Of a DNA stretch of 64,000 bases, positions 4,131-60,280 are shown in pieces. A program made the translations under genes and the position numbers. Every line of letters begins with the position of its first letter. Positions within the stretch are counted from its first letter, which is position 1. The stretch lies in the sequence record SRR31156797_2189; one strand, written 5' to 3'. Below the pieces are notes generated by a model. That model saw only the letters and a program-made list of their open reading frames with translations. It was not told the DNA's origin and ran no database searches.

Positions 4131-4967
<837 letters not shown>

Positions 4968-25196: not shown

Positions 25197-26420
25197 TTAA
25201 TTTGCCTTCTTTCGCAGGTACGCGGGCTCATCATAATCGTGGTTTTCACGATCTTCAAATATCGGTCTTGGCATCGACGGCAGTCCTTGAGGCTGCCTGT
25301 TAGGTTTTGCAGTGGCAAAGTTGTTACTCTCCACTGCTGACGATTTCCCTTCGGAATCCCCTGCGGGTTTTGCCTGGGCTGTTGTGGCAGTGGACTGCGC
25401 CGGTTCAGGATTTCTCCTTACTACTTCGAGCTGAGATATTGTTTCCGTTTCATCAATGCTTGAAATGCCAGTCGCGATCACGGTTACCCGCAGTTCATCT
25501 CCCAGCGATTCATCAAACAAGGCTCCGATAATAATATTGGCGTCATCGTGAGCCTTTTCCTGAATCAGGGCAGACGCTTCCATGAACTCATTCATGGTCA
25601 AGGTCTCTTCGGCAGCCGAAATATTAATAAGGATTCCCCTTGCGCCATCAATACCGACATCTTCCAGTAATTGATTATCAATGGCCCGCTTGGCAGCTTC
25701 ACTGGCACGATTTTCACCTTCAGCAGCACCGGATCCCATGATCGCCGGCCCGACTTCTTTCATGACGGTCTTGAGATCGGCAAAATCCACATTGATATGA
25801 CCAGGGAGATTAATAAGGTCGGTAATCCCTTTTACAGCCTGTAAAAGAACATTATCCACCATCTTCATCATATCCACCAAGGTGGAATTTTTGTTCATCA
25901 AACCAAGCAACCGGTCATTGGGCACGGTGATAATGGTGTCGGCATACTCTTTGAGTTTTTCCCAGCCAGCTTCAGCATTACGCATTCGCTTTTTGGCCTC
26001 GAAGTAGAACGGCTTGGTTACAACGGCAACGGTGAGAGCTCCGGCTTCTTTGCTAAGTTTTGCAATTTCCGGTGCAGCTCCTGTCCCCGTGCCCCCGCCA
26101 AGTCCGGCGGTGACAAAAACCATATCCGCACCTCGCATAGCTTGCTGGAGGTCCTCATAGCTTTCCTGGGCGGATTCCTTTCCCATCTCGGGATCAGCAC
26201 CGGCACCCATGCCTTTGGTTATCCCTGGCCCCAGTTGCAGACGGATATCAGCACGTGATTTCTCAAGTGCCTGCATATCCGTATTAGCCACAATAAACTC
26301 TACTCCGGCCAACCGGTTTTCAACCATTGTGTTAATAGCATTACCTCCACCGCCACCAACACCGATTACCTTGATTACTGCAACAGACTCTTCTTCAGCC
26401 ATTCTAAACGGCATGCTCAT
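25197..26420 (-). CDS. ftsZ: Cell division protein FtsZ
   Basis: [24 protein letters not shown]-terminal DEPAYLRK. Confidence 0.99.
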
Positions 26421-26501: not shown

Positions 26502-27725
26502 CTATACAATTTGTTTTACCCAATTTTTCAGCTTACTCATCATACTGCTATTCTCTTTTGGCACGTAATGATTTGCCTTACTGCCATATAGAACCATCCC
26601 TACTCCGGTGGTACAACGAGGGGAGTTAACATCCTCCATCCTGCCTTCCAGCCCCGAGGGATAGCCAATCCTCACTGGCAAATCAAAAATCTGCTCTGCC
26701 ATCTCAACGACATTGGCTAACAAGGCGGTACCACCGGTTATAACAACCCCGGCATTAATCCGGTTACGATAACCTGACCCATAAATGTTCTTATTGACCA
26801 TCTGCAGGATTTCTTCCATCCTGGCCTCAAGAATCTCGACCATTACCCGCTGCGAAACCTTTCTTGGCTTACGATCCCCCACAGTAGGAACTTCAATGAT
26901 CTGATTTTCTTTTATCATTGATGACAGAGCACCACCGTACAGATATTTTAATTCTTCCGCCTCCTGAAGCGGTGTACGAAGCCCTACACTCAAATCACTG
27001 GTTAAATTGTTGCCTCCAAGGGCCAACTCCCAGGTATGCTTGATAGTACCATTACAAAAAATGGCAAGATCCGTTGTCCCACCACCTATATCAATTAAGA
27101 CTACACCCAGTTCCATTTCATCCCTACTTAAAACCGCATGCGAGGAGGCTACCGATTCCAACACGATCTCAGATACAGCCAACCCGGACCGATTACAGCT
27201 CGTGACCAAGTTATGCAGTGCGGTAACATCGGCGGTAACAATATGTACATTCGTCACCAAGCGTACGCCAGTCATTCCCAAAGGATTTTGAATACCGGTA
27301 TGATCATCTACCATATATTCCTGAGGCAGGACATGAACTATCTGCTGGTTATCAGATATTTTCACGGTCTGGGCAGCCCTGATCACCGCCTCAATATCCT
27401 TTTCCTTTATTTCCTGATTATTAACGGCAATAATTCCTGGAGAATTAAATCCCTTGATATGATTTCCGGCAATACCGACGTAAACAGTCTCAATATCACA
27501 ACCAGCTTGATCGGAGGCAGCGGCAACCGCTTGACGAATCGCCTTAACAGTTGCCTCAATATTAACGACAACACCATTCTTCAACCCTGATGATGCGGCA
27601 GTCCCAACCCCAACCACCTCGACCCTGTCTTCGAAAATTTCACCGACAACTGCCAAGATTTTGGTTGTGCCTATATCCAGACCGGCTATCAACTCACCGG
27701 ATTCACGTACTTCAATTTCTTCCAT
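26502..27725 (-). CDS. ftsA: Cell division protein FtsA
   Basis: GLDIGTTK, DIGGGTTD, TGG, C-terminal amphipathic SKLKNWVKQI. Confidence 0.97.
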   Translation of the reverse strand: MEEIEVRESGELIAGLDIGTTKILAVVGEIFEDRVEVVGVGTAASSGLKNGVVVNIEATVKAIRQAVAAASDQAGCDIETVYVGIAGNHIKGFNSPGIIAVNNQEIKEKDIEAVIRAAQTVKISDNQQIVHVLPQEYMVDDHTGIQNPLGMTGVRLVTNVHIVTADVTALHNLVTSCNRSGLAVSEIVLESVASSHAVLSRDEMELGVVLIDIGGGTTDLAIFCNGTIKHTWELALGGNNLTSDLSVGLRTPLQEAEELKYLYGGALSSMIKENQIIEVPTVGDRKPRKVSQRVMVEILEARMEEILQMVNKNIYGSGYRNRINAGVVITGGTALLANVVEMAEQIFDLPVRIGYPSGLEGRMEDVNSPRCTTGVGMVLYGSKANHYVPKENSSMMSKLKNWVKQIV

Positions 27726-27730: not shown

Positions 27731-28678
27731 CTACCTGTCAAGTTCAGCTCGAGCAACTAAGACCTTATTTTCCATGTAATCCATCCGGATGGATGCAATC
27801 CCTTCTATCTTTTTTTTACGGTACAGCCGTTCCAGAATTTTTACCAGACGGTAGTACTTTGTGTAAATCTTCTCTGTACCGAAATAGATGGGAAAAGGCT
27901 GATCAACCAAATAAACCACCAACCCTTGTTTATTATCCACATGTACTTCAGAGATTGACTGTATAGGGAGAATGGCATTGCCTTTAGCCGCCAGCTTCAA
28001 CAATACCAGTGCCGATTCTGCCGCGGTGCCTTGCGGCAATTGTTTCACTGATTTTGCTGTCTCCCACTTAACACCTGTAATAACAGGATAATCAAAATCT
28101 TGTCCCAAACGCAAGGGCGCAAATAACACCCCCTTGTTATTAAGATAAAACAACTCACTTCCGGAAACATTTTCGACATTAATCAATGCCAGTGGCCGAT
28201 GCTCCCTTACCTTTATTTCGAACGCCGATGGCCATCGCCTCGTCAGGGTAACCCTATCTATCCAGGGCAAGCTGCTGATCTCCCTTGCTGCGGCCTTTGT
28301 GTCCACTGCAAAAAGACTCACACCCTGCTCAATGTTGCCCTTTTTCAAAATCTGCGACTGATTACTTACCCTGTTGCCTTTTACCTGAATGTCTGTGAGC
28401 CGAAAAACATCTGAGCGTATAAGCAGTCCATAGCTCCCCCAACAAAAAAAGCCGACAACAGCACAAAGAAAAAGCAGGGTTATAACTCCCCTTGAGTACC
28501 ATTTGACCTGCTCCTGACGCTGGAGACCGGCGATAGACTTCTGCACGCCCGGTGGTGAAGGGTTATGCCTTTTCCTGGAAATTTTCCCTTTTAAACAATC
28601 CAGTATGCGCACCAATCTCCCCTTCGGTTTTTTCTTTGCAGGGTGAGGAGAAAAACCTCCTGGTGTGTAGGCAACCAT
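27731..28678 (-). CDS. ftsQ: Cell division protein FtsQ/DivIB
   Basis: Basic N-tail, single TM, POTRA (LPWI...RRWP...VREHRP); immediately upstream of ftsA. Confidence 0.88.
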   Translation of the reverse strand: MVAYTPGGFSPHPAKKKPKGRLVRILDCLKGKISRKRHNPSPPGVQKSIAGLQRQEQVKWYSRGVITLLFLCAVVGFFCWGSYGLLIRSDVFRLTDIQVKGNRVSNQSQILKKGNIEQGVSLFAVDTKAAAREISSLPWIDRVTLTRRWPSAFEIKVREHRPLALINVENVSGSELFYLNNKGVLFAPLRLGQDFDYPVITGVKWETAKSVKQLPQGTAAESALVLLKLAAKGNAILPIQSISEVHVDNKQGLVVYLVDQPFPIYFGTEKIYTKYYRLVKILERLYRKKKIEGIASIRMDYMENKVLVARAELDR

Positions 28679-28695: not shown

Positions 28696-29628
28696 TTAAT
28701 AAATGTGTACTTCTGGCTCTAACTGAACCCCTGTTTCCTCTTTAACCTTTTTCTGTATAAAAACCATAAGCTCAACTATATCAGCAGGAATCGCATCACC
28801 ACTGTTGATGATGAAATTAGCGTGTTTGCCTGAGATTTTGGCTCCTTTCAGTTGAAAACCTTTCAGACCAACGGATTCAATCAATCGCCCGGCCGAATCG
28901 TCCTTGGGATTTTTAAAAAAAGAACCGGCTGATCCCGCCCCCCCAGGTTGGTGTACCTTCCGCCAATGGGCATATTCTCGACATCGACCTTTAACCTTTT
29001 CTCCATCTCCTGATGCCAGCTGCAAAGTGCAACCGACTATAACATATCTCTGCCCTGCTGATTCACGGGGAAAGCTGGTTGTTCGATAACCGAACGCAAT
29101 CTCTTCTGCCTGTACTTCCAGTATCTGCCCAGTGCCAGACACCAAGCTCACGGAATGCACTATATCAGCCATTTGACTACCGTGGGCGCCTGCATTCATG
29201 CGTATGGCTCCCCCTAATGTCCCGGGAATACCGGTTGCCCACTCCATGCCAGCCAACGCCTTTTGAGAACAAAAAGAAACCACCTGCCCTAACCTGCACC
29301 CACCACCAACAGTGACAAAAACACTACCAACAGCCGCGGTACTCTTTTTCTCTACCGTCCTAATTTCTGTAAACACATCCCCGAGTCGTATAAACAAACC
29401 TTCAAAGTAGTCGGTGACGAGGATATTTGATCCTCCGCCGAGCACGGCCCACTGCACACCGTTTGATTCCAACCAAGCAAGGAGAGCCCCCAGTTCGTCT
29501 AGTTTTTCCACCTTAACCAAGGCCTCCGCCCTGCCACCAACCTTGAATGTCGACCGGCTCCCCATATCCACATCCCACTGTACTTGTGAAACGCGCTGCT
29601 CCAATTGCTTGCGCTGGCTATCGATCAT
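28696..29628 (-). CDS. murB: UDP-N-acetylenolpyruvoylglucosamine reductase
   Basis: GGGSNIL, GIPGTLGGAIRMNAGAHG, SAGSFFKNP, KHANF, LEPEV. Confidence 0.96.
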   Translation of the reverse strand: MIDSQRKQLEQRVSQVQWDVDMGSRSTFKVGGRAEALVKVEKLDELGALLAWLESNGVQWAVLGGGSNILVTDYFEGLFIRLGDVFTEIRTVEKKSTAAVGSVFVTVGGGCRLGQVVSFCSQKALAGMEWATGIPGTLGGAIRMNAGAHGSQMADIVHSVSLVSGTGQILEVQAEEIAFGYRTTSFPRESAGQRYVIVGCTLQLASGDGEKVKGRCREYAHWRKVHQPGGAGSAGSFFKNPKDDSAGRLIESVGLKGFQLKGAKISGKHANFIINSGDAIPADIVELMVFIQKKVKEETGVQLEPEVHIY

Positions 29629-29636: not shown

Positions 29637-31019
29637 CTACTTCTTTTCAGCAATAAGGTGAAGCACTTGCTCACCGGTACGTACAATATTCCCTGCTCCT
29701 AATGTCAAGAGCAGGTCATTTTCCTGCAAAAGCGGAAGCAGCTCGGCGGGTGAATCAATAAGCCCTTGAATATAGTAGGTATTTCGCTGTCCATGTTTCT
29801 GTATTGCATCCTGCAAAGCCACGCTAGTTACACCGTCAATAGGCGCTTCACTTGCTGGGTAAATATCAGTAAGGACCAACACGTCCGCCCGATGAAAAGC
29901 AGTCACAAACTCATCAAACAAACCCTGGGTTCTACTGTAACGGTGGGGCTGAAAAGCAACGACAAGTCTCTTTTCCGGCCAGCCTTCTCGAACCGCATCA
30001 AGCGTTGCTCGAATTTCTGTTGGATGATGTCCATAATCATCTACTACCAGCACACCCTCAACCTCGCCTTTAAGCTCAATACGACGCTCTACGCCTTGGA
30101 ATCCCTGCAGCGCCATAGCGATAGTGGAGAAATCAATCTCAAGCTCCAACCCCACAGCGATGGCTGCCAGACTGTTATAGATAGTATGCCGTCCCGGGCG
30201 GTTGAGGGTTACCTGACCCAACTCCTCCTGCCGTCTCTTAACGGTAAATCTGGTGCCGCCATCCGTTGATACAATCCGGGTGGCATAAAGGTCCGCCTGT
30301 TCAGTCAGGCCGTAGGTTATGGTTCTTTTATGAATCTTTGGCAGAAGCGCGGCGATATTTTTATCGTCAAAACAGACGATCGCAACTCCATAAAAGGGTA
30401 ATCGGTTAATAAACTCAAGAAAAACATCTTTAATGTGATCAATGTCCCGGTAGTAATCCAAGTGCTCCAAATCAATATTTGTCACCACTTCAATCACTGG
30501 AGACAATTTCAAAAAAGAACCATCACTCTCATCGGCTTCTGCAACCAGGAATTCACCTTCACCCAGTTTTGCATTGCCCCCCAGGCTTGCGACCTTGCCA
30601 CCAACCACGATGGTCGGATCCAATTCAGCCTCTCCCAAAATGGTGGCAACCAAAGAAGTAGTAGATGTCTTACCATGACTACCGGCAATAGCTATACCAT
30701 ATTTCTTTAACCTCATAAGCTCGGCAAGCATCTCTGCCCGCTGAATGACAGGTACATGCTCCTCCCTTGCCTGAGCTACTTCAGGATTATCTTCTGCAAT
30801 AGCGGTGGAGGTAACTACCACATCAGCATTCCCTACCCACTGACGCTCGTGGCCACGATAGATTTTAGCACCAAGCTGCTCCAAATTCCTCGTTATATCT
30901 GTTGCCTGGAGATCGGACCCACTTACGGTATAACCTAGATTCAAAAGCAGTTCGGCGATTCCGGACATTCCAATCCCACCGATTCCGACAAAATGAATAT
31001 GTTTTGTTTTTCTGTACAT
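29637..31019 (-). CDS. murC: UDP-N-acetylmuramate--L-alanine ligase
   Basis: [38 protein letters not shown] 31019 preferred. Confidence 0.97.
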
Positions 31020-31023
31020 TGCT

Positions 31024-32130
31024 CTAAATACCCGGTTTGCCTGCCTTGGTTTTTTTTTCAATAAGGCGCAAGCACTGCTCTACGATTCGATCAGTAGCTT
31101 CCGGCACTCCCATTTCACGCATCTTAGCTGCCATTGTTCGTAACTCACCTTCCGGCTTCAACAATATACTACAGAGCACCTCCGCCAGTTCATGCCCTGA
31201 AAGGGTATCCTGCTGCCGTATCAAGCACCCACCCCCCTTGGCATAATACTCAGCATTGGTCTGCTGATGATCATCCGCTGCGTGAGGGTAAGGGATAAGA
31301 ACAGCTGGAAGTCCAGCCACGGCAAGTTCCGCCAGTGTTGTTGCACCTGCTCTTGAAACCACAAAATGAGCACGCTTGTAAAGCTCAGCCATATCTTTAA
31401 AAAACGGCTGCACCTCCACCGCCACATCCAGGTCGCCATAGGCTTCGGCAACCGTCTCGTAATCTTGCTCACCGGTTTGATGTATAATATGAAAGCTGTG
31501 TCCTTTCCCAACCAATTCTCTAACGGCTTCAACAAAGAGGGAATTAACCCTGTGCGCGCCCTGACTCCCGCCCAAAACAAGTAATGTCAACGGGCTCTGC
31601 CACACTTTTCCTGCTACAGCTTTTTCCAGTATTTCTTGACGTACAGGGTTGCCCGTCTGTACCACCTTTGCGGCCGGAAACGTGTCACCGCATGGCATTG
31701 ATATGCAAATAGTGTCTGCGATTCTTCCTGCCAACCTGTTTGCAAGCCCTGGTACTGAATTTTGTTCATGGATGCACACTGGCACACCAAGCATTTTTGC
31801 TGCCAGCATCACAGGGCCGGTAACATAGCCGCCCACTGCAAAAACCAGATCGGCCTTAAACCTTCTCAAAATTTTGATAGCAGTCAGCACTGCTATTGGC
31901 TGTTGAAACAAGCTGCGAGCTTTTTCGACAACCGTTGTTCCTTTTAATCCGCTGCAATGAAGCACCACTGTCTCCACATCTGTCCCGGCAAGAACCTGCT
32001 GGTCCAATGCTCTTGCAGTACCAATAAACATGACCTCTGTTTGCGGTACAGCATGCTGCATTGCCTTTGCCAGAGCAAGCCCAGGAAACAAATGACCGCC
32101 AGTCCCCCCGCCAGTAACAACTAAACGCAT
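31024..32130 (-). CDS. murG: MurG glycosyltransferase
   Basis: [35 protein letters not shown]. Confidence 0.97.
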
Positions 32131-32333
32131 TCTGCACATCCCTGGTAGTTTGATTGCAGTGCGCTGCCTTCATGACCTGCAGCTAAAAAATTCTCAATCT
32201 CGACCATGGCTTCATGGAAACACTGTGGACAATAACCATGGGAAGCAACAGCTCCTTCGTCAATATAGTTGATATATTGCCATGAACCATCGTGCTCAAC
32301 CTTGCTGCAAACACAACATACTTTAATTGTCAT
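32121..32333 (-). CDS. Small Cys-rich putative Zn-binding protein at the usual ftsW position
   Basis: CCVCSK...W...SHGYCPQC; overlaps the murD stop and murG start (translational coupling pattern); same motif pattern as the C-terminus of the response regulator at 17592. Confidence 0.7.
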   Translation of the reverse strand: MTIKVCCVCSKVEHDGSWQYINYIDEGAVASHGYCPQCFHEAMVEIENFLAAGHEGSALQSNYQGCAECV

Positions 32334-33714
32334 TGAGTCCGCCTTTTTCCTTCTCCAGCCTCAAGCGCTGCACACTTTCCATGAATACCCTTCCACGCTC
32401 TTCATACCCAGAATACATGTCAAAACTTGCACATCCAGGGGCAAGCAGAACCAGGTCCCCTTCCTTTGCAAATGTACAAGCAGACTGTACAGCAGCATCC
32501 ATTGACTCTACCAGGGTAACAGGCACAATATCCTCAAAAACATGCTTCATTTTTTCTGCCGCCTCCCCTAGCAATATTAGGTGACTCACCTTTTGTGCTA
32601 TAATATCGCGCAAAAACTGCCAGTCACCACCCTTTTCTCTGCCGCCAGCGATCAAGACCACCGACTCTGAGCACCCTTGCAGCGCGGCATGCAATGCCCC
32701 ACAATTTGTCGCTTTAGAATCATTTATATATCGAACACCATCAATTACTGCTACTTCAGTCATTCTATGCAGTGGCGGCTGAAAAACATTGAGTCCGCTT
32801 TGAATCTGCTCTCTACTGCATCCGGCAAGCCTCACGGCAAGAATGGCTGCTGCTGCGTTGAGGCGATTCACAAAAGAATTGAGGTGCGTACATTCCAAAT
32901 TATAGGTTTCCTGCCTCAATATCCCATCTTCCATAAGCCTCAAATTAACAAGATCCCCTTTGATGGATGCAGCACACTCCTTATCCATCCCAAACCTATA
33001 GACTTCAACATTGTCGACGCTGCTGACTCCAGCCAACCTGGCGTCATCTCCGCCTAAAATTAGTCGATCCCCTAATCGCTGGTGGCCAATCAGTTTTAGC
33101 TTGGCCTCCACATATGCCTCCACAGTATGGTGGCGATCCAGATGGTCCGGCGAGATATTTAAAATCAGACCAATATCAGGTCTAAAAGCACCTGCTAAAT
33201 CCAGTTGAAAGCTTGAAAGTTCAAGAACAACTACATCCGGCTGTTCCTTGCTTGTAAAATACTCAAGTAAGGGGGTGCCGATATTACCGCCTACAAAAAC
33301 TTTTTGTTTAGCATGGGCCAACAACCAGCCAACAAGAGAAGTCACTGTCGTTTTCCCATTTGAACCAGTAATGCCAATGACGGGGACCTCGAAATTTCCG
33401 GCGGCAAGTCCTAGTTCACCTACAATTTCAACTCCCTTTTGCCTCACGGCATTCAGTACAGGTAAATCCAGCGGAATCCCGGGACTGGGTACTACAAAGT
33501 CAAAAGAAGTCAGAAATTCTTCTGTGTGCCCTCCAAATTCAAAAATAACCCCCTTGCTCTGCAGACCCGCAATCATATCTGCATGGAGTTTGTCAGAGGT
33601 ACTGCCTTCAGATACACCGACACATAGGTCACGATCGAGCAGGTACCGAACAACTGACTGCCCTGCTTTTCCGCATCCGATCACCACACCTTTCATACCT
33701 GGAACAAGAAGCAC
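32323..33714 (-). CDS. murD: UDP-MurNAc-L-Ala--D-Glu ligase
   Basis: SPGIP, ITGSNGKTT, GGNIG, ELSSFQL, DHLDRH, NDSKATN, APGCASFD. Confidence 0.97.
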   Translation of the reverse strand: MLLVPGMKGVVIGCGKAGQSVVRYLLDRDLCVGVSEGSTSDKLHADMIAGLQSKGVIFEFGGHTEEFLTSFDFVVPSPGIPLDLPVLNAVRQKGVEIVGELGLAAGNFEVPVIGITGSNGKTTVTSLVGWLLAHAKQKVFVGGNIGTPLLEYFTSKEQPDVVVLELSSFQLDLAGAFRPDIGLILNISPDHLDRHHTVEAYVEAKLKLIGHQRLGDRLILGGDDARLAGVSSVDNVEVYRFGMDKECAASIKGDLVNLRLMEDGILRQETYNLECTHLNSFVNRLNAAAAILAVRLAGCSREQIQSGLNVFQPPLHRMTEVAVIDGVRYINDSKATNCGALHAALQGCSESVVLIAGGREKGGDWQFLRDIIAQKVSHLILLGEAAEKMKHVFEDIVPVTLVESMDAAVQSACTFAKEGDLVLLAPGCASFDMYSGYEERGRVFMESVQRLRLEKEKGGLNDN

Positions 33715-33716
33715 TC

Positions 33717-34796
33717 TTACCTCAACTTTAAAGTAGCCAAACCGACCAACCCAAGTATGATCGAAATAATCCAGAACCTGACGACTACCTTTGGCTCAAC
33801 CCACCCTTTTTTCTCAAAATGGTGATGAATTGGGGCCATTAGAAAAATTCGTTTTCCCCCTGTGAGCTTAAAATATCCCACCTGAAGGATGACGGAAACT
33901 GCTTCCAATACAAAAATACCGCCAACAATGGCCAACAGTAGTTCTTGTTTGGTAATAATGGATACGGCACCAAGTGTACCTCCAAGGGAAAGCGACCCAA
34001 CATCTCCCATGAAAATTTGGGCAGGATAGGTATTAAACCACAGAAAGCCTAAGCACGCCCCAACCAAGGTGCCACAGTACACAGCAACTTCACCTGCACC
34101 ATGCACAAAAGGAACCTGCAGGTACTGGGCAACCACCATATTGCCAGCTACATAAGAAAAAACGAGATATACGGATCCAGTAATAACGATCGGACCTGCA
34201 GCTAGTCCATCCAGGCCGTCGGTCAGGTTAACAGCATTGGAAGCGCCGACAATAACCAGCACAGCAAAAGGAATATACCACCAACCCAAATCTGGCAAAA
34301 TGCCCTTAAAAAAGGGAAGACTCAGTACCCCGTCATAAACGGGATGTAAAATAAGATACAGGCCGACAATGGAAGCACCCAGCACCTGCAGCGCTAGTTT
34401 TTCCCTGGCTGTCAGCCCTCTGGAATTCCCCTTACGTATCTTTTTCCAATCATCCACAGAACCGATAATGCCAAAAAAAGCACTAACCCCGAGCAGCAGC
34501 CACACCAGACCATTGGTTAAGTCAGCCCAAATAATGGTTGAAAAAATCATAGCTGCTAAGATAAGAACGCCCCCCATGGTAGGTACACCCTGTTTTGAAA
34601 AATGCGACTCAGGACCGTCCTCTCTTATCACCTGACCAATCTGTTTCTTTTTAAGCCAGGTAATAAAAATCGGGCCGACAATGATCACAAAAAGAAGGGC
34701 CGTGATTGAGCTGCCAATGGCCCGAAACGTAATGTAACGGAAAACATTGAGCCAGCTGTAATCGATGTGAAGAGGATAAAGGAAGTTATAGAGCAT
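33717..34796 (-). CDS. mraY: Phospho-MurNAc-pentapeptide transferase
   Basis: [34 protein letters not shown]. Confidence 0.98.
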
Positions 34797-34807
34797 AATG
34801 CATCCCG

Positions 34808-37800
34808 TTAAATTTTCAGGAGCCGTTCCAGCTCTTCAATCATAGTTTCCATTCGCATCCCCCGAGACCCCTTGGCAAGCAGCCAGTCATTACCAGTAAC
34901 CACCCCGTTGGCGATCTGATGGTACAACCAGGCAGCAATAGCCTTTGGATCGGGAAAAACATAAATACACTGTTCTGCCATTCCTGCAGCTAATGCTCCC
35001 TTGGATACACTGGCTGCATACTCACCGGTAACGGCAAGCACGTCGTAGCCAAGTTCCGCCACCAGGCACCCTACTTGTTCATGTGCTTCTCCAGCCGTAT
35101 CTCCTAGCTCAAGCATATCTCCCAGTGCAGCAATGCGCTGCCCCTGCTCGCCAAAAGACGCTACTGTACGCAAAGCAGCAGCCATGGATGCAGGATTCGC
35201 ATTATAGGTGTCGTTTATCACCTGCAACCCTCCAGGGAGGGTAATTGCCACCATGCGTTTATCATAACCTGAATAGGACTCAAGGCCGACAACGATATCT
35301 GCAAGTGGAAGACCCGCGGCAACCGCAATTGCTGCTGCTGCTGCTGCGTTGCTCACATTGTGCTTACCAGGGACCTGCAGCGAAACCCGTTTTTTTTCAC
35401 CCAGCACATCCAGGGTGAAGTTTGTCCCCAAGTGTCCTTTATTAAAAATACGCGTCACTTGAACCGCGGGCTTGTATCTTCTGCCTGTTGCGGTAACGGC
35501 AAACCCGATTTTTTCCCCCTGATCCCCCTTGACCAACCTGCGCACATGATAATCATCATAGTTAACGACCTTTGTATTCTCTGGCCGCATGCCAGCAAAC
35601 AATTCACCTTTTGCGCTCGCAACACCTTCAACGGTTCCAAGGCCAAGGAGATGTGCTGGCTGCACATTATTAATGCAGCCAATATCAGGATCTGCAATGG
35701 CTGCCAGCTTGCCAATCTCGCCAAAGCAGTTCATTCCCATCTCCAGAATCGCAGTTTTGTGTGCCAAAGTCACCGGTAGCAGTGATAATGGGAGTCCTAT
35801 CAAGTTATTGAAATTCCCCTCGGTTTTCAACACCGACTTCCCAGGGTTTTGCTTTTCCTCACTGCAAGCAGCAAAAACTGCAGAGGTCATTTCCTTGACA
35901 GTTGTTTTCCCTGAACTGCCGGTTATGGACACCACAAGCAGCCTTTTCCCCAACAACCTGCGCCGGTAACCGGCAAGCGCTCCAAGAGCGGCAAGTGTAT
36001 CCTGAACCTTTACAACCAATACCTTGCCATTGACAGGGCTCCACTCCTGGTCAACCACAACCACGGCTGCGCCTTTTTCAATTGCTAGCTCTACGTAATC
36101 GTGACCATTAAATTGCTCACCATGAAGCGCCACAAAAATATCACCGGGTTCTATGGACCGTGAATCTGTTGACACTCGATTATAGAAAGCCGTCTCTTTT
36201 CCTGAAATTACCTGACCTTTGGTCGCGGCCAACAGGTGCTTAGCAGACCATGCTAACAACCCCTGCAACGCTTCAAATCGATCATCGAAGTAATGCTTTT
36301 CGCGGCCAATTATCTGGTATGCTTCATGCCCCTTTCCGGCAATCACAATCCAATCCTCATTTTCTGCCTGACTGCAGGCAAGGGTAATTGCCCTGTGCCT
36401 GTCACTAACCACAGAAAAACTTTTTGTTTTTTGCGACCGTCCAAAGAGCTCTTCAGCTGGTACCAAAGCAGCTCCTGAGGCTTCTACACCCGGAACAATA
36501 TCTGCTATTATCCGTTCAGGATCTTCGGTTCTCGGATTGTCTGAAGTGACAACAGTACGATCTGCCCACTGGCCTGCAATCCTTCCCATTTCGTGGCGTT
36601 TGCCGCGATCACGATCACCACCACAACCAAACACGCAAACTAACTTTCCGTCACAGAGTTCCTGGGCAGTCCTCAAGACATTATCCAGAGCGTCAGGTGT
36701 GTGCGCATAATCAACAAAGACAGCAGGTTGTCCCCCTGATTGCTGCTCATTTAACACCACCTGCTCCATTCTACCAGGAACGTTTTCAAGACCTGCCAGC
36801 CCATCACTTACCTGCTGACAATTCAACCCCAGTGCACGACTGATTCCTGCGGCAGTCATCATGTTGAGGATATTAAACTCTCCTGTCAAAACAGACTCCA
36901 CACTCACCTTTTGATCAACAAAGTGGAGGGTGCACCGCGTACCGCTGCTGCTTTGTACTATTTCGCCAGCCCAAATATCATTTTCAGGTTCCAAACCGCA
37001 TCGACACACCTTCAAAGATTGAAGAGCATCAGCAAGTCTAGCTCCCCAATTTTCTCCTTTATCATTTTTTCTACTCACAATGACAGCAGAGCCATCTTTT
37101 TTAAGATGGTGATGAAACAATCGCTGCTTTACCTCAAAATACTCTTCAAAATCATGATGGTAGTCCAAATGATCCCTGCTTAAATTTGTAAAAGCAGCAA
37201 CATCGAAGAGCAGTGAGCCCAATCGTTTTTGATGAAGGGCATGGGAAGAGACTTCCATGAGTACATGTGTCACCCCATTATCAGCCATTACTCGCAGCGT
37301 CTTCTGCAGGGTCACAGGGTCTGGGGTGGTCAGGGGTGCCTCCTGCAGCACCACTGTATTCCCCTTCTCCACATACCTGTAATTAACCGTGCCGATTACC
37401 CCCGGTACGTATCCGGCTTCATCCAGTATTTTTTCAAGCAACCACGTACAGGTTGTCTTACCGTTTGTCCCTGTCAAGCCCGCGAGCACCATATTCTCAG
37501 CTGGCCTTCCATAAAAGACAGCTGCCAATTCCGCTAAAGCAGCCCGTGAATCTTCAACCAGTACAACCAGAACGTTTTCCCCAAAAGATTGGAAATTTTT
37601 GATACAATTTTTCTCGGCAACCACCAGGATAGCGCCTTGCGCAATCGCATCTTTTATAAATGTATGTCCGTCGTGGTGTTCACCCTTTACCGCTATAAAA
37701 ACACTTCCCGAACACACCTCCCTGCTGTTACAGGTCAGAAGGGCAAGCTCCTGTTCCACATCAACATCTCCGCCTATCTGGGCAGATGGCTCGAATGCCG

Positions 37801-37825
37801 TAAGTAAAGTTTTTAAGGTCGGCAT
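34808..37825 (-). CDS. murE-murF: Fused MurE-MurF ligase
   Basis: N-half: GTNGKTT, MEVSSH, DYAHTPD, GCGGDRD, DNPR, AGKGHE. C-half: [40 protein letters not shown]. Single 1005-aa frame. Confidence 0.95.
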
Positions 37826-37831
37826 GTACAG

Positions 37832-39682
37832 TTAAATCCCTTTTTGCAGAGTCAAAAAACACTCATCAATACTGGCCAGTGGTTCACCTGGAGCTGGATC
37901 CTGTTTTATAATCTTTCCGCTTCCGCTGATTCTCACCCTAATATTATGAGTGTTGATTCTTTGTAACCCCTTGCGCAAGCTCAATCCAACCAGCTCCGGC
38001 ATATGCACTGTTGCCGCCACTGCTGTCTCCACAGGTTCTTGAAAATCGAGTCGTTTACTAATAAAAAATTGATGGAAATTCTCAGGACTTTTTTGTTGCG
38101 TATACGCTGGCCGCTCCATTTGCGGCGCCTGCATCACCTTGCTCAAAATATCTTTGCCTATATTGGCCAGTTTTTCTTTTTTCTTGTTTTTCGGCTGCGG
38201 CATCAAGCTGTCTTTTTCAACTGCCATTACCAGCATATAACGCGGCATTTTCACAGGTAAAAGCCCCATGTAAAACTCCTGCATCAGATAATGTGACAGC
38301 CCGTTGCTCACCTTTATGCCAACATGTGAAGTCGTCATGTCAACCAGCCCTTCCTTCCCGCTTTTTTTAAGGCCTTCATTCCTAAACAACTCCCTGCGCA
38401 CGATGATCCCTGAAGCGGGATCAAGAATATGCTCTCGCTCAGCTCTTTTTTGGTCTCTTACATATTCTCTATCTGTCCCGTGGTCATATATTCCTTCCAG
38501 AACATAGGGCGCTATTCGCCAGCCCCCATTAACAAGGCTTGCCAGTGCTACGCTCATTTGCGCGCCGGTAAGGGTGTCTTCCGCAGGATCTTTTACCGAT
38601 TCTCTTCCCAGCTGTTCGTCTCTAGGGTTCGTCCCCCACCGGTCCAGCACCGGTTTTTTTAGCCCTAACTGCGTCTCAAACTTTTGCAGGGTTTGTTCAT
38701 CTACACCATACCGAGGAGCGGCTACTGTCGGAGGCAGCATTTTTTTCATTGCCAGTCCTTCCCTGGTTATAGCTGCAGCCTTTGCAATAATCGGTTCAAT
38801 GAGCGCCTTGTGCAAATCGTGTCGATAGACCCTGTTCAACCGCACCTGTTCATCAGCCTGCCAAAAATAATTGGGATTAAAAGAAGGGTAATTCATTACC
38901 GCCAATACCTTACCGGTAAACGGCTCCAGCAAAACCCCCATTCCCTTGGCTGCGCCCTGTTGAACAAGATAACTTCGGAAACGCTTTTCAAGCTGCTTTT
39001 GAAGATCAATATCAAGGGTCAACACCACATCCGTCGCCTTTTTGCCTAGAATAGGCTGATCAGTCAAATCGATTTCTTTTACATCCTCTTTTCTAAACGC
39101 TCCTGGCTGAAGCAGTGTGTCATACCTCCCCTCAACCCCTGCCAGCCCAATCCCCTCGCCTACAAAGCCGAGTACATGTGATGCGGCTGTATGAGCCGGG
39201 TAAAAACGTACTTCTTCGGACTTGCAGTATATCCCCGGCAGGTCGGCCTTATTGACCTCCGCCGCCTGGTCACTGTCCAGATCATCTGCTAATTCAATAA
39301 CGCGTTGACGACTCTTGAGTTGAATTTCCAGTATTTTCGGGCTTTCTTCCAACACCTGTCCCAGAAGCACAGCCGCCTCTTTTCGGTCTCTTATTTCAGC
39401 CGGGTGCACAAACAAAGAGAACAATCGATACGAAACAGCCAGTTCTTTCAACGATCTGTCGTAAATAGTGCCTCTTAAAACAGGTTCAGCGGGCGAATCG
39501 CCCGCTGCGAACCATGTTTTTTTGTCTACTAAGGCCATCATTCCTTTACTTAAATCCTGAAGAACAGCAGGATTTAAGTACAAGAACACACCGCTTATTA
39601 TTAACAAAACACAAACAAAAGCACTAAGACGCCGTCGTCTTTTTCGCTTCTTTATTAGTCGTGGAGAAAGAGTACTGACCAT
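37832..39682 (-). CDS. FtsI/PBP3 homologue with degenerate transpeptidase domain and C-terminal PASTA
   Basis: TM, RGTIYDR, RFYP, GLAGVE, LTLDIDLQ, GKVLA, NGG...P and PASTA present; no SxxK, SxN or KTG at the expected positions; syntenic with ftsI. Confidence 0.85.
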   Translation of the reverse strand: MVSTLSPRLIKKRKRRRRLSAFVCVLLIISGVFLYLNPAVLQDLSKGMMALVDKKTWFAAGDSPAEPVLRGTIYDRSLKELAVSYRLFSLFVHPAEIRDRKEAAVLLGQVLEESPKILEIQLKSRQRVIELADDLDSDQAAEVNKADLPGIYCKSEEVRFYPAHTAASHVLGFVGEGIGLAGVEGRYDTLLQPGAFRKEDVKEIDLTDQPILGKKATDVVLTLDIDLQKQLEKRFRSYLVQQGAAKGMGVLLEPFTGKVLAVMNYPSFNPNYFWQADEQVRLNRVYRHDLHKALIEPIIAKAAAITREGLAMKKMLPPTVAAPRYGVDEQTLQKFETQLGLKKPVLDRWGTNPRDEQLGRESVKDPAEDTLTGAQMSVALASLVNGGWRIAPYVLEGIYDHGTDREYVRDQKRAEREHILDPASGIIVRRELFRNEGLKKSGKEGLVDMTTSHVGIKVSNGLSHYLMQEFYMGLLPVKMPRYMLVMAVEKDSLMPQPKNKKKEKLANIGKDILSKVMQAPQMERPAYTQQKSPENFHQFFISKRLDFQEPVETAVAATVHMPELVGLSLRKGLQRINTHNIRVRISGSGKIIKQDPAPGEPLASIDECFLTLQKGI

Positions 39683-39687: not shown

Positions 39688-40050
39688 CTACATCTGATGC
39701 ACCTGCCCTTTGGTGGGCACGTAAAGTTCTAGGCGCGCCCCAGCAGCGGCCTGAATATGGCTTTCTGACGCAAGCTGTGCCCGTTTTGCTAACAAGACCA
39801 TATGCAAATCATCAAGCGCTTTCTGCTGGTGCTGCACCTGTTGAAGCATCTGATGAGTCCTTTGAATCTGCCAACTAAAAAGTTGACTTGTGCCGGCAAC
39901 GACCAGCGACACACCAATCAAGATAGCTAACAAGGGCCTCTGCAATTGTTTAGGCGGAGAAATCGCCAAAGATTTACGCCTGACTTTCCGCCTGGCCAAA
40001 GAAGTATTACATGTCGGCCGATAGGGCTTAACACTAATATTTGTTATCAT
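39688..40050 (-). CDS. ftsL: Cell division protein FtsL (putative)
   Basis: Basic tail, TM, coiled coil; between rsmH and the PBP gene; GGAGG RBS before ATG 40050. Confidence 0.72.
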   Translation of the reverse strand: MITNISVKPYRPTCNTSLARRKVRRKSLAISPPKQLQRPLLAILIGVSLVVAGTSQLFSWQIQRTHQMLQQVQHQQKALDDLHMVLLAKRAQLASESHIQAAAGARLELYVPTKGQVHQM

Positions 40051-40091
40051 AACATTGCCTCCGCAATTTAATGAGAACGAAAGTCGCTTCT

Positions 40092-40988
40092 TCAAAAACG
40101 CCGTTTTGCCACCCTCATTTTGGCACTGCGCGCTCTCGGGTTGCTTGTTAATTCTTTTTGGGAAGCCTGCACCGGTTTTTTGGTCATGACTTGATATGCA
40201 TCACTTTTTGCAAAACCCTGTTTTACAATTCTGTCTTCGATGGAATGGAAACTGATCATGCACATCGCGGCGTCCTCTGCAAGCACCTGGGGGGCTGCGC
40301 CAATCAACTTTGTTATATTTTCAAACTCACGATTGACTGCTATGCGCAAGGCCTGGAAAACCTTAGTTGCCACATGTATCTTTTTAGGATGGTACTTGAC
40401 AGGAACAGCGCGAGATACAATACCAGCCAACTGTGCTGTCGTATGTATCGGCTCACTTTCCCGTGCTTCAACAATGAACCTTGCTATACGCCTGGCTTGT
40501 CGTTCTTCTCCGTAATGATAAAATATATCAGCAAGTTCTGCCTCACTCAACTCCGCGATAAGTATTGCAGCAGTAAGAGTGATTTCCTGGCTCATACGCA
40601 TATCCAACGGTGCATCAGCTTTAAATGTAAAGCCTCTTTCACTGCGATCTAGATGAAGAGAAGATACGCCCAGGTCCGCTACTAAACCGTTCACCCGGTC
40701 TACGCCAATGCGATCCAACTCCTCTAGTAGATGGGTATACGATGCCTGGACCAAGACAAATTGACTACCAAAATTAGCTAGCCGCTTGGCAGCAAGCTCG
40801 GCAGCATCACTGTCCCACTCAAATCCGATCACCCTTTCTATACCGGGTTCGAGAGTCAACAAAGCCTCGGTATGCCCCCCAAGTCCTAAAGTGGCATCCA
40901 CATACACCCCCCCAGGCACTGGTGACATCCAGTACAAAACCTCTTGGGTGAGTACCGGAACATGTATTTCTCGGCCTCGACTCCCCAT
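40092..40988 (-). CDS. rsmH: 16S rRNA m4C1402 methyltransferase
   Basis: HVPVL, DATLGLGGH, DLGVSS, LDMRM, FQALRIAVN, SFHSIEDR, NPRARSAK. Confidence 0.97.
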   Translation of the reverse strand: MGSRGREIHVPVLTQEVLYWMSPVPGGVYVDATLGLGGHTEALLTLEPGIERVIGFEWDSDAAELAAKRLANFGSQFVLVQASYTHLLEELDRIGVDRVNGLVADLGVSSLHLDRSERGFTFKADAPLDMRMSQEITLTAAILIAELSEAELADIFYHYGEERQARRIARFIVEARESEPIHTTAQLAGIVSRAVPVKYHPKKIHVATKVFQALRIAVNREFENITKLIGAAPQVLAEDAAMCMISFHSIEDRIVKQGFAKSDAYQVMTKKPVQASQKELTSNPRARSAKMRVAKRRF

Positions 40989-40995: not shown

Positions 40996-41484
40996 CTAAA
41001 GAATTCCTAAAGAAGAAAGCCCGGAGTTGAAATCCGGAAAACGATTTCTAGTCTTGCGAGTCTGCTCAATCCAAGCAGTTTTATCCCATATTTCGAAATG
41101 GTGGAGCATACCGTTCAAGACTACATCCGTGTCGATCTCAAACTCAGACCTTAACGTTGCAGGTACAAGAATCCGGCCTTGTTTATCCAATGTGCACTCT
41201 GTCACACCTGAGATAACATAGCGGACAAAATCTCCAAAACCAGGTTCCATCTGCCCCTGCCCGATGAGTTTCTCTTCAAGTTCTTCCCACTCAGAAACAG
41301 GATAGGCCCTAAGGCATTTTTCCCAGTTGGTCACAACAAGGGTCTCTGTATACTCTTGGCGCAATACTTCCCTGAATCTGGTAGGAATATTGAGACGCCC
41401 CTTGCTGTCAAGTGTGTGCTCGGAACGACTGCGAAATCTGTATTCTGAAATTTTGCCTTTCAATGCACCATCCGTAGTCACCAC
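40996..41484 (-). CDS. mraZ: Transcriptional regulator MraZ
   Basis: Two DxxGR motifs (LDSKGR, LDKQGR) and FEIW; first gene of the dcw cluster; start uncertain. Confidence 0.95.
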   Translation of the reverse strand: MVTTDGALKGKISEYRFRSRSEHTLDSKGRLNIPTRFREVLRQEYTETLVVTNWEKCLRAYPVSEWEELEEKLIGQGQMEPGFGDFVRYVISGVTECTLDKQGRILVPATLRSEFEIDTDVVLNGMLHHFEIWDKTAWIEQTRKTRNRFPDFNSGLSSLGIL

Positions 41485-54051: not shown

Positions 54052-54218
54052 ACCACAATCCATTATTTTTTGGGCAAAACGCCATTGTTCTTTCTATTAA
54101 CAGCGCGCTATACTAGCATATTGGTTAACCGGTGCAATGGATATGGAATACTTTTTTTTGCCACGCACCTTTTTTCACCACACTTACTTACTCACAGTTT
54201 CTCCAAAATCTAAGACCT

Positions 54219-55445
54219 ATGCCGGTATATGAATTCACAGCACTCGACAGCTCTGGGAAAAAGACTAAAGGCATTCTTGATGCTGATTCTCTAACTGCAG
54301 CACGGCAAAAAATACGGGCGCAGGGAAATTATCCTGTAGAAATTAAAGAGACTACTGCCAGGAAGAAGACACAGAAATCATCTTCCGCTCTTTCCTTTCA
54401 TATAGGGAAAAAAATTAATCCACAGGAAATCCACGTTTCCACCCGCCAGCTTGCAACTTTATTGGGGGCAGGCATCCCCCTTATCCAGGCTCTTGACGGC
54501 CTTATCGAGCAGACGAGTAATCGTTACCTCCAAAAATGTGTTGCCCAGATAAAAGACGCTGTCAACGAAGGGAACTCTTTTACCGCTGCCTTAGAAGAGC
54601 ATCCTCGTCTTTTTTCTAAAATCTACATTAATATGGTCAGAGCAGGAGAAGCATCAGGCTCACTTGATGTAGTTCTCGAAAGGCTGGCAGAATTTGGTGA
54701 AAATCAGGCTGCGCTCCGTTCAAGGGTCAAAGCAGCGTTGCTCTATCCCATTTTCATGGCCTTTGTCGGCATCGCTGTTCTGGTCCTCTTGATTACCTTC
54801 ATTGTCCCCAGTATAACCTCTGTTTTTGAAGGGACTCAGCAGGCCCTTCCCTTACCGACCATCCTCCTCATCGGCACCAGTTCCCTGCTTCAAAAATACT
54901 GGTGGCTCCTCCTCTTGGTTATTACAGGAGTATTCTTTGGCATTACTGCCTTTCTCCGCAGGCCGGAAGGTAAAAAAATGTGGGATACATGTAAACTCTC
55001 TCTCCCAGGTTTAAAAGATTTAAATATCAAAATTGCCTCAGCCAGGTTCGGCCGAACCCTGGCCAGCCTGCTCAGCTCAGGTGTCCCCCTCACTGCCTCC
55101 CTGCAGATAGTAAAAAACATCGTCAACAACAGCGTGCTTGCAGAAATTATTGAACAGGCAGGAGAGGAACTCGAAAAAGGGAAGAGTCTGTCACATATTT
55201 TTAAAGGCAGCGCCTATTTCCCACCAATGCTGGTCCAGATGATTGCAGTTGGAGAACAGAGTGGTGCCTTGGAAAAAATGCTTGAAAAAGCTGCAGACAG
55301 CTATGAAAAAGAAGTTGAAGCCAAGATTCTGGCCCTCACCTCAATGATTGAACCGATCATGATCCTGGTGATGGGAGTGGCAGTCAGCTTTATCGTTATC
55401 TCCATTCTGCTGCCTATTTTTGAAATGAACCAGCTTATCAGGTAA
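54219..55445 (+). CDS. gspF: Type II secretion inner-membrane protein GspF
   Basis: MPVYEFTALD, RQLATLL.AG.P, AGEASG.L, YP, GEQSG.L, EP...LLPIF; ATG 54219 preferred. Confidence 0.93.
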   Translation: MPVYEFTALDSSGKKTKGILDADSLTAARQKIRAQGNYPVEIKETTARKKTQKSSSALSFHIGKKINPQEIHVSTRQLATLLGAGIPLIQALDGLIEQTSNRYLQKCVAQIKDAVNEGNSFTAALEEHPRLFSKIYINMVRAGEASGSLDVVLERLAEFGENQAALRSRVKAALLYPIFMAFVGIAVLVLLITFIVPSITSVFEGTQQALPLPTILLIGTSSLLQKYWWLLLLVITGVFFGITAFLRRPEGKKMWDTCKLSLPGLKDLNIKIASARFGRTLASLLSSGVPLTASLQIVKNIVNNSVLAEIIEQAGEELEKGKSLSHIFKGSAYFPPMLVQMIAVGEQSGALEKMLEKAADSYEKEVEAKILALTSMIEPIMILVMGVAVSFIVISILLPIFEMNQLIR

Positions 55446-57162: not shown

Positions 57163-57210
57163 ACAATTTGCCGACTGCCAAGTTTCTTACTCTGTCCATT
57201 TATCGCCATG

Positions 57211-59466: not shown

Positions 59467-59549
59467 ATAACAGCCCCTTTCACAACTCCACCTCTTATAA
59501 CCGGAAACACAGCCTCTTTTAACAACCTGCGACAAACTGACGTTCTCTA

Positions 59550-60278
59550 TTACTTTTCAAGAGCCGCCTCAAACTCTTCACTCTCCTCATCTACGAATTC
59601 CTCTAGACCTTCGTCTTCAGCCATGAGAGGCTCCTCGGGTTCCTCCACCGCTTCTGGAAGCTGTGTACGCCCTTCCCGAAAGCTGATACGTCTTTTAGGC
59701 CTCACCACAGGGACCCTTTTTTGAGCAGCGGCTCTCCCCTTGTTTTGCGTAACCGTTCGTCCTCTGTTGGCGATAGGGGCTGGAGGGCCGCCCCCTCCCT
59801 TTCTTTCCTTAATGCTCAGAGATTCAGTGCGTCCATTCACATCCAAGATCACTCTTCCTCTGCCAATCTTTCGTATCCTGGCATTTTGCACGCTATCCCC
59901 GATACGAAAAAGATCCTGCTTTTTTTCCTGTTCATCGATGATAATCGCTCGGGCATCCATATCATCACCGACAACGGTACCGAGCAGCACCAGCTTCAAT
60001 GAAGTTTCTTCATGGTTTTCATCTTCAGCAGGAAGAGGCTCCTTGTCACCTATCTCCAACAATGCCTGGAAAATATTTCTGCTGACAATGACCTCATAAT
60101 CCCCCGACGGAACTGAATTAACGACAACTGTTGCACTTCTATCCTCAGCAGGTTTGACAACCTCGCTCCCTGCAGGAATAAGTGCCACAAGCCCCTGTTC
60201 AACCCGCTCGTACCAAAGAGATACCCCTACGTAGACCAAGGTTGTCAGGGAAAGAATGGTTAACAGTACCCGTATCAC
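59550..60278 (-). CDS. gspC: GspC-like protein (no PDZ domain; acidic tail)
   Basis: N-terminal TM, RNIF, LKLVLLGTVVG...AII HR domain; directly upstream of gspD. Confidence 0.78.
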   Translation of the reverse strand: MIRVLLTILSLTTLVYVGVSLWYERVEQGLVALIPAGSEVVKPAEDRSATVVVNSVPSGDYEVIVSRNIFQALLEIGDKEPLPAEDENHEETSLKLVLLGTVVGDDMDARAIIIDEQEKKQDLFRIGDSVQNARIRKIGRGRVILDVNGRTESLSIKERKGGGGPPAPIANRGRTVTQNKGRAAAQKRVPVVRPKRRISFREGRTQLPEAVEEPEEPLMAEDEGLEEFVDEESEEFEAALEK

Positions 60279-60280
60279 TG

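Follow-up and report, generated by a model that had tools for sequence, protein, structure and literature searches.

The DNA analysed here is a stretch of 64,000 nucleotides from sequence record SRR31156797_2189 (the window). It contains a cluster of genes for division and the cell wall (dcw cluster) which, according to the list of open reading frames (ORFs) and Pfam searches, is complete and unbroken from mraZ to ftsZ on the minus strand (41484-25197). The window comes from a Desulfogranum-like member of the class Desulfobulbia, a relative of sulfate reducers. Two places in the cluster are the subject of this report: the usual ftsW slot between murD and murG, and the gene at the ftsI position, between ftsL and murE. 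FtsW, of the SEDS family (named for shape, elongation, division and sporulation), and FtsI, a class B penicillin-binding protein (bPBP), are regarded as the septal synthase that is essential and nearly universal among bacteria with a wall. A preliminary description of this DNA had reported that both partners are affected and had proposed a rewired divisome. The observation itself was confirmed, with ftsW gone and the FtsI homologue non-catalytic, and the interpretation was partly supported.

The distance from the murD stop to the murG start was found to be 184 bp in the window. It is filled by an ORF of 70 aa which overlaps the end of murD by 11 nt and the start of murG by 19 nt. With a gap of this size and a small ORF overlapping both neighbours, there is no room for an ftsW gene of about 1.1 kb, in agreement with its reported absence from the usual slot. 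No SEDS or penicillin-binding protein (PBP) domain was found in the 35 other window ORFs of at least 150 aa. The slot was also short in relatives: 194-311 bp in all 12 Desulfobulbaceae loci that span it, each with an orthologue of the 70-aa ORF, and only 24-128 bp in five of five deeper members of the order Desulfobulbales, which have neither ftsW nor the small ORF. The distance from murD to murG is about 1.1 kb in the one outgroup locus, from Ignavibacteriaceae.

The gene at the ftsI position encodes a 616-aa protein (P0001, called pseudo-FtsI below), and its orthology to FtsI is given by synteny. Pfam analysis revealed a pedestal domain (PBP_dimer, PF03717; 56.4 bits, cut-off 24.4, residues 67-177) and a PASTA domain (PF03793; 28.7 bits, cut-off 23.2, residues 559-607), and the N-terminal anchor is present (Table 1). 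The Transpeptidase match (PF00905) reached only 26.8 bits (cut-off 22.1) and covered profile positions 158-298, which is the second half. The protein scored below the NCBIfam cut-offs for FtsI (NF011685, 76.3 versus 737), SpoVD (TIGR02214, 116.6 versus 688) and MrdA (TIGR03423, 106.5 versus 455), with matches spanning about the first 300 residues only. The 46 matches of a PDB sequence search, the best of them to SpoVD (E 2e-26), ended near residue 270-300.

Pseudo-FtsI was aligned with five intact FtsI proteins of other Thermodesulfobacteriota and the PBP2 of the nearest relative. In this alignment the serine of SxxK is replaced by Leu294 and its lysine by Pro297, about 33 residues around SxN are deleted, and KTG is replaced by Met-Thr-Thr (449-451). 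The earlier statement that SxxK, SxN and KTG are missing is therefore correct for the motif positions, but not for the protein as a whole, in which the letter strings SLRK (568, in PASTA), SFN (267, in a conserved PSFNPN) and KSG (440) occur elsewhere. KSG 440 sits in a loop with a predicted local distance difference test (pLDDT) value below 50. It is not conserved, as any K[ST]G after residue 350 was found in only 10 of 131 family members.

An AlphaFold2 model of pseudo-FtsI built with 33 homologues had a mean pLDDT of 77.3, and Foldseek matched it to PBP2x with an E value of 2.6e-30. VIA superposed the model on SpoVD of Clostridioides difficile (Z 31.0, 409 residues aligned, root mean square deviation 4.0) and on FtsI in the Pseudomonas aeruginosa FtsWIQBL complex (8bh1_B; Z 28.4, 407 residues aligned), the superpositions covering model residues 62-522. 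The predicted fold is that of a class B PBP throughout, with the shape of the transpeptidase domain retained. Judged from the alignment, pseudo-FtsI lacks every catalytic motif at its structural position and is a predicted pseudoenzyme.

A scan of species-representative genomes with P0001 yielded 15 loci, comprising 14 of Desulfobulbaceae type and the Ignavibacteriaceae outgroup. The dcw gene order was identical in all 14. The nearest relative was Desulfogranum marinum DSM 2058 (Desulfobulbaceae, Desulfobulbales, Desulfobulbia in the NCBI taxonomy), with 84% identity in pseudo-FtsI. A family alignment of 131 members was assembled from 121 proteins found by protein search (P0001 included) and 10 translated from loci. 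The catalytic serine position was occupied by Leu in 127 members, Thr in two, Ile in one and Met in one, and by Ser in none; no S..K string was found within 25 columns of this position in any of the 131. The SxN columns were gaps in all 131 members, and the KTG lysine was Phe or Tyr in 119. As a control in the same alignment, six of six intact bPBPs kept SxxK and KTG, and SxN aligned in five of them, the PBP2 row being gapped there. The FtsI-position proteins of five deeper order members were 24-46% identical to P0001, and all three motifs were missing at the aligned places in each. The sequences indicate that FtsW absence together with a dead FtsI is a trait of the whole order Desulfobulbales and class Desulfobulbia, and not of a single genome; the rewired divisome described for this genome has to be re-scoped to that level.

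The frames of pseudo-FtsI are intact in 131 relatives. Between the window and D. marinum, a pair with a synonymous rate (dS) of about 1, the ratio of nonsynonymous to synonymous substitution rates (dN/dS) was 0.085 for the whole gene. By part it was 0.051 for the pedestal, 0.082 for the dead domain, 0.055 for PASTA and 0.29 for the N-terminal 60 residues. The neighbouring genes gave 0.122 (murE-F), 0.122 (murD), 0.123 (murG) and 0.021 (mraY) for the same pair. In three other species pairs dN/dS was 0.34, 0.20 and 0.22 for pseudo-FtsI, compared with 0.30, 0.21 and 0.12 for murD. Mean pairwise identity among 33 homologues was highest in the pedestal (0.54) and in PASTA (0.55). Intact frames in relatives, together with dN/dS values of 0.085-0.34 that resemble those of murD and murG, indicate a pseudoenzyme under selection rather than a pseudogene, and the preliminary view that the pseudo-PBP has been kept is borne out. 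The FtsI orthologue of this lineage is an ancient, maintained pseudoenzyme under purifying selection.

These data bear directly on the possibility that the gene is decaying into a pseudogene or is an artefact of annotation or assembly, with the missing ftsW being an assembly deletion. The very weak transpeptidase match of 26.8 bits would fit such an explanation, as would the names that NCBI gives to the relatives' proteins, which are only 'PASTA domain-containing protein' or 'hypothetical protein'. However, the frame of 616 codons is intact, full-length frames were found among the relatives listed, the same gene order occurs in 17 independent assemblies, dN/dS lies within the range of murD and murG, and the structural model is confident and PBP-like. 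We regard decay or artefact as extremely improbable. The JGI label of these homologues is 'cell division protein FtsI (penicillin-binding protein 3)'.

All genome-wide counts of SEDS proteins and bPBPs were made by proxy, in relatives. The SEDS family (PF01098) had exactly one match in each of five relatives, directly downstream of the strongest PF00905 match. In D. marinum this sole SEDS protein reached 402.1 bits with the rodA model TIGR02210 (cut-off 336.7) and 287.9 bits with the ftsW model TIGR02614 (cut-off 337.5), and its neighbour scored 724 bits with pbp2_mrdA (TIGR03423). Among 151 genomes of the order, 142 had one PF01098 match, seven had two and two had none. Five of the seven genomes with two matches were re-examined; G137 and G148, in which at least one listed match lies at a contig end, were left out. 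Two of the five cases proved to be one split gene, one was a 19-bit chance match, and two (G103 and G030) were accessory genes, neither dcw-type nor FtsW-like. The ftsW cut-off was reached by none of 81 class-level genomes, a sample made up largely of the same genomes as the order sample, and this cut-off is strict, being passed by only three of 14 control genomes. By contrast, 101 genomes of the phylum gave two PF01098 matches in 74, three in four, one in 22 and none in one. As at least two were found in 78 of the 101, the method detects a second SEDS gene where one is present. PBP_dimer (PF03717) matched twice in 77 of 81 order genomes, once in three, not at all in one and three times in none. 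The two matches in a genome consist of a strong one (138-180 bits), which is PBP2, and a weak one (33-60 bits), which is the FtsI homologue.

The SEDS and PF03717 counts in relatives thus revealed no relocated FtsW-FtsI pair in the lineage. A relocated SEDS-bPBP pair, one of the options in the preliminary description, is therefore rejected for the lineage, where the sole SEDS gene adjoins PBP2 in five of five relatives and is RodA in D. marinum; the other septal alternatives named there, namely RodA-PBP2, class A PBPs and L,D-transpeptidases, are still candidates. A plain rearrangement, with a canonical ftsW and an intact ftsI elsewhere in this genome and the dcw copy being a divergent paralogue, is also very improbable. 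It is true that only 64 kb of this genome is visible and that rare accessory SEDS genes exist in the order (G103 and G030). Nevertheless, the two accessory genes are of neither the dcw nor the FtsW type, D. marinum has one SEDS protein (RodA) and one intact bPBP (PBP2), and the proposal that ftsW is simply elsewhere fails in the relatives, with exactly one SEDS match in 142 of 151 genomes and exactly two PBP_dimer proteins in 77 of 81.

In a tree of SEDS proteins, the sole SEDS of Desulfobulbales formed a clade of its own (99/100) outside a clade of four SEDS proteins (91/76), the latter consisting of three dcw-linked proteins and a fourth, from G185, not placed beside the ftsI of that genome. 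The tree is otherwise poorly resolved, with seven of 16 inner branches open, and its G169_dcw row is in the wrong frame with a very long branch. Because of this weak resolution, the typing as RodA relies on NCBIfam scores and synteny. The protein is 71-88% identical among the 119 non-identical homologues listed. By these sequence assignments, the relatives retain no SEDS-bPBP pair other than RodA-PBP2.

The accessory SEDS gene of G103 lies in a cluster (L079:771-5368) encoding an FHA protein, the SEDS protein, a peptidase and a PbpA-type PBP, which resembles actinobacterial operons. That of G030 (L080:1647-5078) is a single frame of 1143 aa in which a SEDS domain is joined to a transpeptidase domain.

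Other parts of the division machinery persist. The window encodes FtsZ, FtsA, FtsQ and an FtsL-like protein, and FtsB/DivIC is encoded in five of five relatives. The preliminary description had listed ftsL, ftsQ, ftsA and ftsZ as intact. This was confirmed by full Pfam matches for ftsQ, ftsA and ftsZ, but ftsL was recognised by position, size and topology only. The 135-aa FtsL-like ORF has one membrane helix followed by a helical stretch. In each of the 14 Desulfobulbaceae-type loci it was found with rsmH on one side and the ftsI homologue on the other (29-87% identity). It had no FtsL or DivIC match in Pfam or NCBIfam, even at E values up to 10, and the name FtsL is thus a putative one, given by position, size and topology.

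Candidates for septal synthesis were also found. Each of five relatives encodes at least two GT51 proteins. One, of about 620 aa, is a class A PBP (PBP_1a_fam, 621.6 bits in D. marinum). The second is a protein of 1134-1173 aa with counterparts in all five; in the D. marinum protein of 1140 aa (L078:1155-4577, G001:C144) the transglycosylase domain scored 188 bits. About 600 residues after its transpeptidase fragment match no family. This protein may represent another PBP of the lineage that is degenerate or has diverged strongly. YkuD L,D-transpeptidases numbered one to four per genome in the same five relatives.

We conclude, with a probability of about 0.78, that Desulfobulbia divide without FtsW and with a maintained non-catalytic FtsI, and that their septum is made by other synthases. 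Pseudo-FtsI would survive as a non-catalytic structural or regulatory subunit of the divisome. As happens in the canonical complex, its pedestal would contact FtsQ, FtsL and FtsB; the PASTA domain would contact peptidoglycan or lipid II, while polymerisation and cross-linking of septal glycan would be carried out by other synthases. We infer that the septal wall comes from class A PBPs and/or RodA-PBP2. By analogy with C. difficile, and at somewhat less than even odds, the conserved class A PBP or PBPs may be the main septal synthase, placed or regulated via pseudo-FtsI and FtsQLB. FtsBLQ has been reported to regulate the glycosyltransferase of PBP1b in Escherichia coli (PMC6325244). A sizeable minority of the mechanistic weight falls on a RodA shared with or borrowed for the septum, and a small part on a mixed or other mechanism.

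Several points weigh against this interpretation. The genome-wide counts come from relatives, and the window itself is 64 kb of its genome; many of the sampled genomes are draft assemblies that may be incomplete; and the count of one SEDS protein is a count of PF01098 matches, which a very divergent or non-homologous polymerase would escape. The dN/dS values are rough because the main pair has a dS close to 1. The transpeptidase match of the 1140-aa GT51 protein of D. marinum is weak and partial, being an N-terminal fragment of 33.6 bits. Septal synthesis by class A PBPs in particular has to face two further facts: retention of the anchor and pedestal is the hallmark of SEDS pairing in every studied case, and the vegetative division of C. 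difficile needs no FtsI-like scaffold.

The retained anchor and pedestal are central to an alternative in which one SEDS protein has two partners, RodA building the side wall with PBP2 and the septum with pseudo-FtsI at the FtsZ/FtsQLB ring. PBP2, class A PBPs or L,D-transpeptidases would then add cross-links to the septal strands in trans, and pseudo-FtsI would be a pure targeting and activating subunit tied to FtsQLB and FtsZ. We consider this alternative a serious one, though on balance unlikely. Pseudo-FtsI keeps the very parts with which a bPBP normally docks onto a SEDS protein and activates it. Its pedestal ranks among its most constrained parts in both dN/dS (0.051) and identity (0.54), and the model of the protein can be superposed on FtsI in the FtsWIQBL complex. 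In 142 of 151 order genomes RodA is the only SEDS protein, and it is unusually conserved (71-88% among the homologues listed). Inactive canonical bPBPs are reported to support division when another bPBP cross-links, and in Salmonella one glycosyltransferase can serve more than one bPBP (PMC12516126). However, the N-terminal 60 residues, which include the membrane helix expected to contact the SEDS protein, are the least constrained part of the protein (dN/dS 0.29). Moreover, RodA adjoins PBP2 and has no genomic link to dcw; rodA was described in a single mre-pbpA-rodA gene cluster (PMC7873302). If sharing were nevertheless true, it would provide the first natural example in which a pseudo-PBP serves as a SEDS adaptor and RodA as the septal polymerase, conserved across the whole class, cable bacteria included. 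RodA is not known to act at the septum alongside a partner of FtsI type in any organism.

The Desulfobulbia system, made up of the dcw cluster of the window and the genomes of relatives, was compared with known systems. It shares with the canonical FtsWIQBL core of E. coli and P. aeruginosa (8bh1) the slot of the bPBP gene between ftsL and murE, the anchor-pedestal-transpeptidase fold, FtsQ and an FtsL-like protein in the window cluster, and FtsB in relatives. It differs in having no FtsW in the window cluster or in the relatives' genomes and a bPBP without SxxK, SxN and KTG. The C-terminal PASTA domain of pseudo-FtsI is a further difference from the canonical core, although the five aligned intact FtsI proteins of other Thermodesulfobacteriota also have one.

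The closest parallel is C. difficile, which does not use FtsW or FtsI for vegetative division; its RodA-PBP2 is elongation-specific and the class A PBP1 drives septation (PMC10693644). In both systems, RodA-PBP2 next to mre is the only essential SEDS-bPBP pair, leaving a class A PBP as the septal candidate. What was found by proxy in the relatives of the window agrees with this: no functional FtsW-FtsI, RodA-PBP2 as the sole SEDS-bPBP pair, and class A PBP genes in five of five, their septal role being a putative one. C. difficile is the only walled, FtsZ-using divider without FtsW-FtsI for which experimental support is claimed in these sources (PMC10693644, PMC13584725). It is, however, a monoderm spore former, whereas Desulfobulbia are diderm non-spore formers. 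Its dcw cluster keeps an active SpoVE-SpoVD pair reassigned to sporulation, while in Desulfobulbia the SEDS gene is gone and the bPBP is dead yet conserved, class-wide.

Inactive bPBPs that support division have been described as PBP2b of Bacillus subtilis with PBP3 and SpoVD of C. difficile with PBP3 (PMC12516126). The parallel with pseudo-FtsI is that, in these cases, what is essential in a division bPBP can be its non-enzymatic part, while another enzyme provides the cross-links. They are, however, laboratory point mutants with a SEDS partner, whereas the loss in Desulfobulbia is natural, ancient and extensive, with a deletion and all motifs gone, and the cognate SEDS protein is absent. Hyphomicrobiales without RodA and MrdA, in which class A PBPs are thought to take over (PMC12516126), likewise show lineage-wide loss of one of two SEDS-bPBP machines. 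They are a mirror image, having lost the elongation pair and kept FtsW-FtsI, the reverse of Desulfobulbia. Compared with the known divisome lacking FtsW-FtsI, that of Desulfobulbia is unusual in being diderm and class-wide and in having a naturally dead but conserved FtsI.

The finding has been partly anticipated. Geerlings et al. (2021) found zipA, ftsW and ftsN to be absent from two Electrothrix and two Desulfobulbus-type genomes (PMC7873302). Their account treats the absence of ftsW as unremarkable, takes FtsI as recruited and assigns septal synthesis to FtsI activity as in E. coli; it also lists ftsL as not encoded in three of the four genomes (PMC7873302), probably because no FtsL model matches the FtsL-like ORF. 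Desulfobulbia are absent from the main text of a 2025 survey that covers bPBP and SEDS proteins throughout Bacteria, though its supplementary tables may list them (PMC12516126). A full-text literature search found no report of a non-catalytic FtsI in Desulfobulbia and none of class-wide scope, and a search on pseudoenzyme PBPs gave no paper. The absence of ftsW in four Desulfobulbaceae genomes is therefore already in print; the dead FtsI and the class-wide scope are apparently new.

C. difficile is presented as the exception to the use of FtsW-FtsI in the abstracts of two papers (PMC10693644, PMC13584725). Our data indicate that Desulfobulbia are a second, independent and much broader exception, covering an entire class of free-living diderms that includes Desulfobulbus, Desulfogranum and the cable bacteria. 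The class offers a natural experiment on the roles of the non-catalytic parts of a division PBP, and a test case for the capacity of class A PBPs or of RodA to act as the primary septal synthase of Gram-negative cells. It is predicted that FtsI-specific beta-lactams have no division target in Desulfobulbia. Two accounts would be corrected, namely the JGI label of FtsI (penicillin-binding protein 3) and the attribution of septal synthesis in cable bacteria to FtsI activity, and a dedicated profile would repair the annotation of the FtsL-like ORF.

The 70-aa ORF in the ftsW slot (P0002) was found in 13 of 13 Desulfobulbaceae loci, the window included. Ten residues are invariant (C6, C7, C9, W18, H32, Y34, C35, P36, C38 and M43), and dN/dS was 0.168 between the window and D. 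marinum. Within Desulfobulbaceae it is a genuine gene that has been conserved. It was assigned to no Pfam or NCBIfam family; Pfam at E values up to 10 gave only a RING-finger row of 15.7 bits. In the structural model (pLDDT 81), a helix at 36-56 comes after short beta hairpins. The model had no PDB fold match at E values up to 0.001, the best rows (E about 1.2) being Zn(Cys)4 regions of PerR/Fur, and is compatible with a small zinc-binding module. A profile search with the ORF gave 1672 representative clusters at E of 0.001 or less, 149 of them at 1e-10 or less, and the best 150 of the 1672 were all 53-129 aa in length; sequence similarity places the ORF in a broad unnamed family of small Cys-rich proteins. 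Its domain of about 50 residues was also seen weakly (24-37 bits) inside unrelated larger frames of other Thermodesulfobacteriota. As a replacement for FtsW the ORF was rejected, for it has no membrane segment and is absent from five of five deeper order members that lack ftsW. Rather than replacing FtsW in function, it represents an insertion at family level.

The features of the dcw cluster are listed in Table 1.

Table 1. Features of the dcw cluster and of the FtsI-position protein in the window
Feature	Position	Strand	Basis or remark
mraZ	40996..41484	-	First dcw gene; Pfam MraZ 102.7 bits
rsmH (mraW), 16S rRNA methyltransferase	40092..40988	-	Pfam Methyltransf_5 332.9 bits
FtsL-like small bitopic protein, 135 aa, TTG start	39688..40095	-	Position, size, topology
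Non-catalytic FtsI homologue (pseudo-FtsI, P0001), 616 aa	37832..39682	-	PBP_dimer, PASTA, weak Transpeptidase (Pfam)
Pseudo-FtsI membrane anchor, about residues 21-36	39575..39622	-	Hydrophobic residues 22-35; AlphaFold2 model helix 7-36
Pseudo-FtsI pedestal (PBP dimerisation), residues 67-275	38858..39484	-	Pfam 56.4 bits
Pseudo-FtsI transpeptidase-like domain without active site, residues 276-545	38048..38857	-	Alignment; predicted fold retained
Pseudo-FtsI C-terminal PASTA, residues 559-616	37835..38008	-	Pfam PASTA 28.7 bits
Fused murE-murF, 1005 aa	34808..37825	-	Two each of Mur_ligase, Mur_ligase_M, Mur_ligase_C
mraY	33717..34796	-	Pfam Glycos_transf_4 127.2 bits
murD	32323..33714	-	Pfam Mur_ligase_M, MurD-like_N, Mur_ligase_C
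70-aa Cys-rich ORF (P0002), usual ftsW slot	32121..32333	-	Orthologues at same place in relatives
murG	31024..32139	-	Pfam Glyco_transf_28 and Glyco_tran_28_C
murC	29637..31061	-	Pfam Mur ligase domains
murB	28696..29628	-	Pfam MurB_C and FAD_binding_4
ftsQ	27731..28678	-	Pfam POTRA_1 62.5 bits and FtsQ_DivIB_C 33.5 bits
ftsA	26502..27725	-	Pfam FtsA 147.7 bits and SHS2_FTSA 97.9 bits
ftsZ	25197..26420	-	Pfam Tubulin 161.6 bits and FtsZ_C 99 bits

The murE and murF genes form a chimera in which both ligases are encoded in one frame, with two copies of each Mur ligase domain. Each of the 12 Desulfobulbaceae loci with the gene in full gave a single continuous match to the fusion. Such MurE-MurF chimeras are already known, mostly from Proteobacteria (PMC10214165). 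For two deeper order members, only the MurF half was covered by the best match, and the fusion may not be order-wide.

Directly upstream of mraZ, a diguanylate cyclase of 876 aa with dCache-HAMP-PAS-GGDEF architecture is encoded at 41933-44563 on the minus strand. Nitrogenase genes are located at 320-4958, also on the minus strand, with two Oxidored_nitro genes (nifD/nifK-like, 320-1693 and 1719-3356) and nifH (4131-4958). At the other end of the window (54132-63999) lies a set resembling type II secretion or type IV pilus systems, comprising GspF, GspE, a secretin with C-terminal TPR repeats, GspC, M, L/PilN and K.

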